DNA from: Massalongia carnosa
Taxonomy: Eukaryota
Length of the DNA stretch: 64,000 nt
Assembly: GCA_965645245.1 (NCBI GenBank)
Contig: OZ287087.1
Coordinates: 682,001-746,000 of the forward strand
Reading direction: 5' to 3'
Both the position numbers and the translations under genes were made by a program. The notes under the pieces were generated by a model. It did no database searches. It saw nothing but the letters and a program-made list of their open reading frames with translations, and was not told the DNA's origin. Of the stretch, positions 26,525-28,360 are shown one piece after another (the stretch's first letter is position 1; each line of letters starts with the position of its first letter).

Positions 26525-28360
26525 TTATATGAGTGTCGTAGCGGAAAGCTTTTGTATGACGTCTCGATTGAATGTTGTCGCAAAGTCGTCTCGTCCAGTA
26601 CGATCCTTGTATTTGGATTCAAGACACAGTAACACGGCACTGGAGTAAGCCTCGCCCATGTTGTGCGCAATCTTTCTCTTGGCATACCAGCTGTAAAACT
26701 TACTGATCTCCAATGCACTCATGCTTCGAGGTTCGCCGGCACGTTTTCGGTCGCGTTGCGACTGATCGGTCATGGCTTTTGCCGTCTGCCAAACCGCAAT
26801 CTCCAGAAGAATCACACCAAGCGAATATATATCGTGCGTCTTGCTATGCGGAGGCCGGAAGGATCCTTGTAAATCCGCGTGAAGGTAAGGATCAACCTCG
26901 CTGGTATAAGCCGCAAGTGTGGATGAGGCCCCGTTGGGTCTGGAGTACTCAAAATTGACAAGGTAGGGCACATAACAGAGATTGTCCTGACCTGTGGTTT
27001 CCTCCTCACGGTGATTGAAAAACACCACGGATTGGCTCCGTACACCCTTGTGGATCCAACCATCGGCATGGAAATTACCCAGACTCAGAGCGATCCTCTG
27101 GGCAATCTTGAAGCGAGTGGACAGTGATAACGATCGCCTGCTTTCTATGATGGAATGTAATGAGATTGGATCGCTCGGTTCGGCATCCTCGGGGATCTCA
27201 AACACGAAGGCATGCCTTCCCAGCTCTGGTTGGTGTACGAGACCCTTGAACGGCAATGTTCCAAGTTTGTTGAGGCCGGAAGTATCTAGAATACTTGCCA
27301 GCTGGTTGACCCGCACCTTAACTGTTTCTCGGGTTGAAGCTTCCTCTTGAATCGGTGCATCAAAGTCCGCAAAGACCGGCGACCCGTTGGTGCCGCTAGT
27401 GAGCCAGCTGAACCGTGAAGGGCTGGTGGTTGTCAGATGTCCATTCTGCTCGCCGGCATTCGAAGTGTTGAAGTATGCTTTGTATTCAACCAAGACAGTC
27501 TCTGTGGTGGTATTTCCTTCTGCTATTTTCCGTTTCAACGTTGCCATGTGAACAGTAGACGCATTGCCCGTTGCCTCGAAGTAGCCGTTTTCGATATTGA
27601 ACCGCCTTTTGCCCGAGCTAGCACTCATCGCGAGCATTGTCCTCTCAGCTCGAGCTGCAAAACCTAATATATTTGCATCCTTGTCGTCACGTAGAACTTC
27701 GTATGGTTTTTGTTGCTGGCCCCAAAGACTTTGCAGGCGTGACTGGTACGCTACTGCGATCTGGAGGGTACCCGACAACTGGGCATTCCGCTCACGGAAT
27801 TTCTGCACGATGGCCTCCAACTTCTTCTTGTCAAACAGTGACCATCTTGAAGCTACACGGAGCTCTTCAGCTTTTGTTTTCATCCGGGAAAGGGTCGATG
27901 GTTTGCCTGTCTCGCTTTGGTCTGGTTTCTGTGACCCGAAGGACTTGCTCGCCGCTAAAACCTGCTCAGTCCATGGCGAGTAGCTAATCCGTGCGAGCCG
28001 CGCATAATCGGAAAAGTCATCTCGGAAGCGTTCACAGATGTGAATGGTGTCAAATAGTATCTCCTGCAAAGAGAGGTTGGTAAGCGTCTCCGAAACATCC
28101 ACAAGTCATGGTCGTCGCATAGGGCACAGACCGACCTCATTGATTAGCTCATCGTCGACAAGGTTCCCTTCGGCCTTACTGAACCATCGTTCGAATGCGC
28201 TGAGAATGACAAGCTCGTGACGGATATCATCCACAACTCGTTTCCTTTCCAAGTCGCACTGTTTGGCCGATTGAACTGTATCGTAGATATATTTCCCTAC
28301 CGTGTAGGCTTCGTGGCAAATCGCGATAACCCCGACAGTGATGCTGAATGGATCGGCCAT
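26525..28360 (-). CDS. HeLo (HET-s N-terminal-like) domain + pseudokinase, about 587 aa; exons 28360-28136 and 28063-26525
   Basis: N-terminal MADPFSITVGVIAIC hydrophobic helix; HeLo-type RWSLFDKKKLEAIVQKFRERNAQL; kinase fold with VLVEYK, HKG in place of HRD, NFE in place of DFG, and DIYSLGVILLEIA. A 72-nt phase-0 intron removes the in-frame stop. Confidence 0.85.

Follow-up and report, generated by a model that had tools for sequence, protein, structure and literature searches.

A HeLo-pseudokinase gene of the DUF7580 family and its divergently transcribed kinase neighbor in Massalongia carnosa

In the known fungal HeLo executioners, HET-S and HELLP, the switch is thrown by NOD-like receptors (NLRs) through amyloid templating. 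What marks animal necroptosis is control by a kinase through phosphorylation; we know of no demonstration of it in fungi and of no paired kinase gene for the plant MLKL proteins. The plant MLKLs (AtMLKL1-3 and wheat Pm13) combine a HeLo domain with a pseudokinase and represent innate immunity outside animals (10.1101/681015), and the genes of HET-S and HELLP each form a two-gene cluster with that of the activator (PMC12881547). The latter source, a 2025 review, touches on the architecture only in a figure legend, where some HELL domains are said to share a protein with a kinase or pseudokinase domain; its passages on necroptosis call for clarifying the extent of necroptosis conservation in fungi and describe no kinase partner. 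Here, a 64,000-nucleotide stretch of the Massalongia carnosa genome (GenBank assembly GCA_965645245.1, contig OZ287087.1, positions 682,001 to 746,000; referred to in full as the window) is described, which carries a HeLo-pseudokinase gene on its minus strand (28360..26525) and a kinase gene on its plus strand (28731..33021), arranged head-to-head. The HeLo-pseudokinase belongs to a fungal family, DUF7580, that has lost its catalytic residues throughout and keeps one Ser/Thr in the activation segment, and the head-to-head pairing with a kinase gene recurs in other fungi. The architecture of the protein was already noted in the 2025 review, and the recurrent gene pair is what the present analysis adds.

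Gene structure and domain order

The HeLo-pseudokinase gene starts with an ATG at 28360, ends with a TAA stop at 26525-26527, and would comprise 587 codons after splicing, as read from the open reading frames (ORFs) and the sequence. Exon 1 (28360..28136, minus strand) has 75 codons and encodes the first HeLo helices (MADPFSITVGVIAI...), and exon 2 (28063..26525) encodes the remaining HeLo domain, the linker helices, and the kinase-like domain. The predicted intron between them (28135..28064) is 72 nucleotides (nt) long, has GT..AG borders, and contains an in-frame TGA. This 72-nt stretch separates the main 525-amino-acid minus-strand ORF (26525..28102), whose residue numbers are used throughout, from an in-frame ORF further upstream (28106..28366) that starts with MADPFSIT. 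Protein P0003 of Lambiella insularis (592 amino acids) is colinear with the gene from 28360 to 26528 along its residues 1-592, with 61% identity, and lacks the 24 codons of the intron; in contigs from four runs, other strains carry a 1-nt insertion within the intron (28075/28076) and no indel is listed for the coding sequence. The missing codons and the intron indel support the two-exon model. The reading frame is open, and all residues that are invariant in the family are kept.

The rest of the HeLo domain and the long, brace-like linker helices lie at 27626..28063 on the minus strand (ORF residues 14-159), where the AlphaFold2 model places helices at residues 4-39, 43-54, 70-126, and 132-159. 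The HeLo domain is split by the intron. Exon 1 gives a weak, sub-threshold PigL_N/HeLo-like match (E 6e-4), and exon 2 alone matches HeLo (PF14479) at residues 53-127 with an E value of 4e-4 and 20.7 bits versus a gathering score of 23.2. The N-terminal 232 amino acids of the ortholog P0003 pass that score with 23.6 bits. HeLo was matched in 21 of 76 scanned relatives, with a best E value of 4.6e-20, and the family profile matches the HeLo structure of HET-s (2wvo, E 7.5e-4). P0003 residues 1-232 were modeled as entirely helical, with a predicted local distance difference test score (pLDDT) of 84. Foldseek searches with this model returned nothing at E<=0.001 (best E 0.098), and a structural alignment search returned generic helical proteins with a best Z score of 10.8, which is within the background of helical models.

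The window protein consists, in this order, of a HeLo domain, a helical linker, and a pseudokinase, which is the domain order of MLKL. It also shows the loss of the Asp residues of the HRD and DFG motifs and the retention of the β3 Lys, which had been noted in a preliminary description of the window made from the sequence alone. The HeLo family membership (Pfam HeLo) is common to HET-S and HELLP. However, those proteins are switched through a C-terminal prion motif that is templated by an NLR, whereas the gene described here has a pseudokinase at its C terminus and a kinase as its neighbor. Compared with animal MLKL, the N terminus of the fungal protein matches the HeLo profile and not the solved MLKL bundle.

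The DUF7580 pseudokinase domain

The kinase-like domain spans 26528..27610 on the minus strand (ORF residues 165-525) and has a kinase fold. The ORF matches the Pfam family DUF7580 (PF24476) at residues 305-499 with 36.9 bits versus a gathering score of 27 (E 4.3e-9), and the kinase-like motifs are therefore not a matter of chance. The match with the general Pkinase profile has an E value of 0.014 and 15.3 bits versus a cut-off of 31.7. The motifs named in the preliminary description all occur where it had placed them, inside 26880-27500: the β3 motif VLVEYK ending in K208 (27479..27496, residues 203-208), the degenerate catalytic loop HKGVRSQS (27029..27052, residues 351-358), NFE at the DFG position (26948..26956, residues 383-385), and the activation-segment stretch YSRPNGASSTLAAYTS (26900..26947, residues 386-401). 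The equation of HKG with HRD or HGD and of NFE with DFG in the C lobe agrees with three kinds of alignment. In phmmer, WIHKGVRSQS pairs with VHKDLKSKN of KSR1, the HKGVRSQS of the pseudokinase standing against HKDLKSKN. In hhalign, when the DUF7580-family profile is aligned with the profile of the partner-kinase family, HK[S/G] stands opposite HGD and xFE opposite DFG. In HMMER, the family profile aligns WvHksirSes with TLHGNISSSS and LvgFEysRp with LAGFELSKT of rat MLKL. In the AlphaFold2 model of the gene (pLDDT 86.9, predicted template modeling score 0.85), the third strand of the N lobe (residues 198-209) has K208 at its end and is followed by an insert and then by a long helix (residues 249-275), an arrangement that in the model is that of β3 and αC. 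The β3 assignment of K208 rests on this topology, since no sequence profile aligned the N lobe.

HMMER searches over 1.84 billion representatives yielded 3421 proteins at E<=1e-3, the weaker of which probably include ordinary kinases, and 95 at E<=1e-30. All of the named relatives are from ascomycetes, the closest being from lichen-forming Lecanoromycetes, and 70 of the 76 scanned relatives are members of Pfam DUF7580. Among 116 aligned relatives, to which all column counts below refer, none has Asp in the HRD-Asp column (S76 G19 N16 A2 T1 E1 R1). The DFG-Asp column (383) is G57 D30 N25 E3 S1, the third DFG column (385) is E92 G12 D9 A3, and the catalytic Asn column contains S58, N33, and others. 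Neither a conserved Gly-rich loop nor a conserved αC Glu was found across the aligned family. In contrast to an active kinase, the protein thus has no HRD Asp, DFG Asp, GxGxxG motif, or conserved αC Glu, and with the catalytic Asn also gone, its description as a pseudokinase is well founded. Other positions are strongly kept. The β3 column is K100 R12, the E206 column has Glu in 111 relatives, and the family motifs derived here (VxVEYK, GWVHK[S/G/N]xRS, xFEYSRP, YRHP, and HDxYSLG) all occur in the window protein. The absence of the HRD Asp from every aligned member indicates that the degradation is family-wide and old, and by this comparison the motif loss is ancestral to a large family and not peculiar to the window gene. 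The MLKL-like degradation that had been put forward for this gene is therefore real, and the family consensus at xFE is GFE, the same as in MLKL, but it is a property of DUF7580 as a whole.

The retained residues bear on whether the domain might still perform a non-canonical catalysis, by phosphotransfer with substitute residues or by another nucleotide-dependent reaction. Lys or Arg at the β3 position in 112 relatives, Lys after the catalytic-loop His in 88, and the DFG Asp in 30 are compatible with such an activity. However, the HRD Asp is present in no relative, the catalytic Asn is mostly lost, the Gly-rich loop and the αC Glu are not conserved, and the window gene itself is also without the DFG Asp, which makes residual catalysis very improbable.

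The relationship of the domain to other kinases was addressed with a profile search of 177,635 distinct PDB sequences, 34 of which pass E<=1e-3. This set comprises IRAK4 entries, five entries of MLKL, two of plant-type kinases, and HET-s. The MLKL entries have E values of 8.6e-7 (rat), 6.2e-6, 2.6e-5, and 4.9e-4 (mouse), and 3.8e-4 (a further MLKL entry). The three top-scoring IRAK4 entries show HRN in the alignment and are presumably engineered Asp-to-Asn variants, and the remaining, wild-type-like IRAK4 entries have an E value of 2.1e-6. By profile, MLKL and IRAK4 are tied, and part of the MLKL score comes from the shared degenerate motifs. The best single-sequence match in the PDB (phmmer) is the pseudokinase KSR1/2. 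By structure, BRAF is best (Z 20.5-21.2, root mean square deviation 3.4-3.6, 247-261 residues aligned within residues 166-525), and the Z score is 17.7 for RIPK3 and 17.3 for rat MLKL, at rank 33. MLKL was not among the 50 best matches listed for the pseudokinase model by Foldseek or by a second structural alignment search. A Ser at the sixth position of the catalytic loop is common to the pseudokinase, KSR, IRAK4, and MLKL in the printed alignments. The kinase-like domain is tyrosine kinase-like (TKL-like), and common descent with MLKL as an already fused HeLo-pseudokinase is possible. With animal MLKL, the fungal protein has in common the domain order, the loss of the HRD and DFG Asp residues, the β3 Lys, and, in the consensus of its family, GFE, whereas the catalytic loop is HG[K/N] in animal MLKL and HK[S/G] in the fungal family. 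KSR differs from the window protein in that it keeps the Asp of its HKD motif and has no HeLo domain.

The activation segment, from YSRP to YLHA, lies at 26879..26947 and includes the conserved Ser394 at 26921-26923. Its length of 20 residues is close to the family median of 21. As the preliminary description had held, the segment is rich in Ser, Thr, and Tyr, which make up 40% of residues 386-405. Column 394 is T72/S42, i.e., Ser or Thr in 114 of the 116 members, and R388, Y406, and H408 are invariant. The remaining Ser and Thr residues of YSRPNGASSTLAAYTS vary across the family, so the conservation that a phosphorylation switch in this segment calls for is found at S394 and is missing from the others. 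In the HMMER alignment, column 394 stands opposite the second Ser of TSIS in the activation loop of rat MLKL, with an uncertainty of a residue or two, and the fungal protein thus also has in common with animal MLKL an activation-segment Ser/Thr aligned to the serine-rich part of the loop. We take the TSIS stretch of rat MLKL to be approximately that of S345/S347 of mouse MLKL, the residues targeted by RIPK3.

A second feature named in the preliminary description, a Ser/Thr-rich insert of about 45 residues after β3, exists but is smaller and less rich in Ser and Thr than proposed. The segment is a lineage-specific disordered insert between β3 and αC (27359..27478, minus strand, residues 209-248). 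The distance from K208 to the conserved αC Leu268 is 59 residues versus a family median of 23.5, i.e., about 35 residues are added, and the Ser/Thr fraction of the insert is 0.25 versus 0.18 for the whole protein, which is a mild enrichment. A distance of 59-63 residues occurs only in the window protein, P0002, and P0003, among which the insert is poorly conserved, and pLDDT is <50 at residues 222-241 of the AlphaFold2 model.

The divergent kinase gene and recurrence of the pair

The start codons of the two genes are separated by 370 bp (28361..28730), a putative shared promoter. The partner gene (28731..33021, plus strand) encodes a non-RD kinase, a middle region, ankyrin repeats, and a Na/Ca-exchanger-like membrane domain, and it is colinear with Lambiella P0212 (1207 amino acids, 49% identical) from 28824 to 32961 in four tblastn pieces. 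The kinase domain (approximately 28940..29950; Pkinase E 3.5e-15) has the Gly loop LGMGKGSQG, VIK, HGDLKPAN, and DFG. Since HGD, the catalytic Lys, the Asn, and DFG are invariant in 62 aligned relatives, the partner is predicted to be an active non-RD kinase. The best PDB match of its family is BRAF (E 6.6e-16). The ankyrin repeat region (31064..31186) has a sub-threshold match (Ank_5, E 1.6e-4), and relatives carry Ank families. The exchanger-like transmembrane region (32584..32982) matches Na_Ca_ex (PF01699) with an E value of 1.1e-4 and 22.6 bits versus a cut-off of 24.9; it is clear in the relative P0213 (E 1.5e-13), and PF01699 is listed for 7 of 79 longer partner homologs, the kinase-exchanger architecture recurring in lichen-forming fungi. 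We know of no description of a kinase fused to ankyrin repeats and to a multi-pass, Na/Ca-exchanger-like membrane domain at the C terminus.

Compared with the continuous Lambiella protein, the partner gene in the window is shifted in frame by one base at 29044..29045, between the Gly loop and β3. An extra C behind 29044 that restores the frame occurs in the contigs of all four other runs compared (in X3, at 900 of a depth of 2467). Either a short run of C was misassembled here, or the window carries a genuine, natural null allele. In other runs, variant haplotypes of the middle region have a compensating -1/+1 pair of indels separated by 102 nt (30096 and 30198) and two 3-nt indels (30306 and 29832), which suggests that this part of the partner gene is loosely constrained.

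The neighboring kinase, which had been mentioned in the preliminary description, proved to be a conserved partner. In Lambiella insularis, the pseudokinase (MMC13_000157) and the kinase (MMC13_000156) have adjacent tags on the same 1.89-Mb contig, and in two assemblies of Teloschistes flavicans, whose proteins are ~34% and ~36% identical to those of the window, the genes are likewise adjacent (Q9202_003016/003015 and LQ352_006862/006861). A scan of metagenomes gave 27 loci. Seven of these (L019, L020, and L022-L026) were dropped beforehand because they are ordinary kinases, bacterial-like or resembling plant leucine-rich repeat kinases, and nine (L006, L011, L014-L018, L021, and L027) were left out of the count for having <2 kb upstream of the gene, which leaves 11 that could be evaluated. 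A divergent Pkinase gene is immediately upstream in six of the 11 (L001, L002, L007, L008, L009, and L010), or in five of nine after the look-alike arrangements L003/L004 and L009/L010 are merged. The kinase is followed by ankyrin repeats in L001, L007, and L008, fused to tetratricopeptide repeats (TPR) in L009/L010, and followed by a patatin-like ORF in L002 (L002:639-5587, minus strand). Across Lambiella, Teloschistes, and a variety of metagenome fungi, genes with as little as 23-35% identity are still paired, always head-to-head. Kinases make up an estimated 1-2% of fungal genes, and pairing in six of 11 loci is therefore far above chance. In the other five loci (L003, L004, L005, L012, and L013), no adjacent kinase is present, which indicates that the pairing is not obligatory; the neighbor in L003/L004 is a metallophosphatase. 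The kinase/HeLo-pseudokinase gene pair is described in no paper found by our literature searches.

Further observations concern the surroundings of DUF7580 genes at other loci. A HET-domain gene (L016:1712-4336, minus strand) and WD40 repeats (L017:4316-5095, plus strand) lie beside DUF7580 loci, and together with the patatin-like ORF of L002, these neighbors are typical of fungal non-self or death genes. The DUF7580 gene of L012 appears to be split by ~2.6 kb between query residues 350 and 350-456 (4312-4971 and 7592-7927), which may reflect a transposon insertion.

Direct fusions of kinases with DUF7580 also exist. P0058 of Clonostachys byssicola (859 amino acids) has an active-looking kinase fused to DUF7580 and no HeLo domain. 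Its kinase was rejected as a member of the same family as the window's partner, being only 25% identical (E 4e-4). In this single case, an Asp is aligned at the conserved Ser/Thr position. As a lead only, an Atlas cluster of 53 members has Pkinase in 100% and DUF7580 in 79%. No longer fused form of the pseudokinase domain was scored among 2293 candidates, which is weak evidence.

Such fusions are in keeping with an alternative in which the pseudokinase is not a substrate but a binding partner or decoy, and the HeLo domain fires when the complex is disturbed. The complex could be an allosteric dimer like that of KSR and RAF, or the pseudokinase could mimic a kinase that an antagonist's effector targets, in the manner of pseudokinase decoys in plants and of immune proteins with a kinase and a pseudokinase in tandem. 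The parallel with KSR-RAF is that KSR is the best single-sequence PDB match of the pseudokinase, that RAF kinases (BRAF/CRAF) are its best structural matches, and that BRAF is the best PDB match of the partner family. The partner kinases also come from more than one family, as expected if pairing is by docking: six have HGD, that of L002 has HRD, and the TPR kinase of L009 has no motif match. However, pure docking does not need the activation-segment Ser/Thr that is kept in nearly all members, and we consider this alternative unlikely, if worth retaining.

The DNA around the gene pair is rich in transposons, so that the pair stands as an island. It is flanked on both sides by ORFs of copia- and gypsy-type retrotransposons (RVT, integrase, gag, and chromo), at 2-10109, 14238-15254, 18791-20983, 51319-53345 (minus strand), and 54143-59808. 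An intact-looking Tc5/pogo-type DDE transposase ORF (33503-34858, plus strand; DDE_1 E 1.6e-47, HTH_Tnp_Tc5) is directly downstream of the partner gene. Two ORFs at 16372-18287 (plus strand) match NDC10_II, domain 2 of the centromere-binding CBF3 subunit, in a region of raised GC content (0.60), and they may be part of a mobile element.

These surroundings bear on two further alternatives. The HeLo-pseudokinase might be independent of its neighbor, the switch being thrown by nucleotide binding via K208, by another kinase, or by oligomerization, and the adjacency would then mean no more than that the two genes are co-expressed from one promoter or that both reside in a variable region rich in transposons. 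The retrotransposon-packed region with its DDE transposase, the frameshifted kinase copy of the window, and the five loci without a neighboring kinase fit this account, but a head-to-head arrangement that persists across such divergent fungi and exceeds the chance expectation does not, and independence seems quite unlikely. The gene might also be a decaying relic with no present function. Five of the nine coding differences between the window and one other strain are non-synonymous, a ratio of small numbers, and this, like the transposons, could be a sign of decay; however, the frame is open, the coding sequence has no indel in the contigs of the four runs although the intron and the flanks carry indels, and every family-invariant residue is present, so that a relic is hardly to be expected.

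Candidate mechanism and meaning

A RIPK3-MLKL-like phospho-switch is plausible for the gene pair. In its specific form, phospho-activation of an MLKL-type HeLo-pseudokinase executioner by its divergently transcribed partner kinase, we regard the proposal as evenly balanced. The dead, TKL-like DUF7580 domain would serve as a regulatory switch joined by long helices to the membrane-targeting HeLo domain. The partner kinase would engage the pseudokinase domain and phosphorylate the activation segment there, with S394, the residue conserved in the family, as the likeliest site. The HeLo domain would then be released, oligomerize, and permeabilize the membrane, and the outcome would be regulated cell death or an immune-type response. 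We infer the binding, phosphorylation, HeLo release, and death from RIPK3-MLKL and HET-S/HELLP, and membrane permeabilization by the N-terminal domain would follow from its membership in the HeLo family. The dedicated active kinase is common to RIPK3-MLKL and, by gene adjacency, to the fungal case, but the fungal partner kinase resembles a RAF-type TKL and carries ankyrin repeats and exchanger-like domains. A complex prediction for the Lambiella pair (kinase residues 70-375, pseudokinase residues 228-592), run without alignments, scored 0.00 and speaks neither for nor against binding.

Several observations weigh against phospho-activation by the partner. The activation segment is modeled as ordered (pLDDT 79-89), and the conserved Ser/Thr could therefore be structural. 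Neither HET-S nor the four-helix bundle of MLKL is among the 50 best matches listed for the N-terminal model. Over 28 non-independent pairs, the divergence of the pseudokinases is only weakly correlated with that of the partner kinases (Spearman 0.35, p 0.07), a comparison that is uninformative by itself. To these are added the loci without an adjacent kinase, the origin of the partner kinases from more than one family, the frameshift in the window's own kinase copy, and the share of non-synonymous differences in the pseudokinase gene.

The HeLo-pseudokinase gene belongs, as an ordinary member, to a large fungal family that is catalogued yet unstudied and that mirrors MLKL in its architecture. 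DUF7580 has no assigned function and is mentioned by name in no paper of the literature searched, which did not extend to supplements; the parts of PMC10197012, PMC9815663, PMC9262711, and 10.1101/681015 that were covered do not treat the family. With a conserved kinase partner, the phospho-regulated switch of the preliminary description becomes a specific, testable two-gene hypothesis, and the pair is a concrete test system in which two genes offer a single candidate phosphosite and a single effector domain. The presence of an exchanger-like domain in the kinase is also a hint that cation handling may be connected with an executioner that forms channels.

More broadly, the pair may represent a conserved fungal two-gene, necroptosis-like module that is the functional counterpart of RIPK3-MLKL, in which a sensor-type active kinase with ankyrin repeats or TPR, and in lichen-forming fungi with a Na/Ca-exchanger-like membrane domain, would switch on a HeLo-pseudokinase executioner encoded head-to-head with it by phosphorylating the conserved activation-segment Ser/Thr; this is a tentative proposal that we hold to be possible rather than probable. 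If it is true, DUF7580 would be a dedicated "kinase-receiver" module that couples kinases to death effectors and also occurs in direct fusions with kinases, and MLKL-type death under phospho-control would either go back to an ancestor of animals, plants, and fungi or have been reinvented two or more times.

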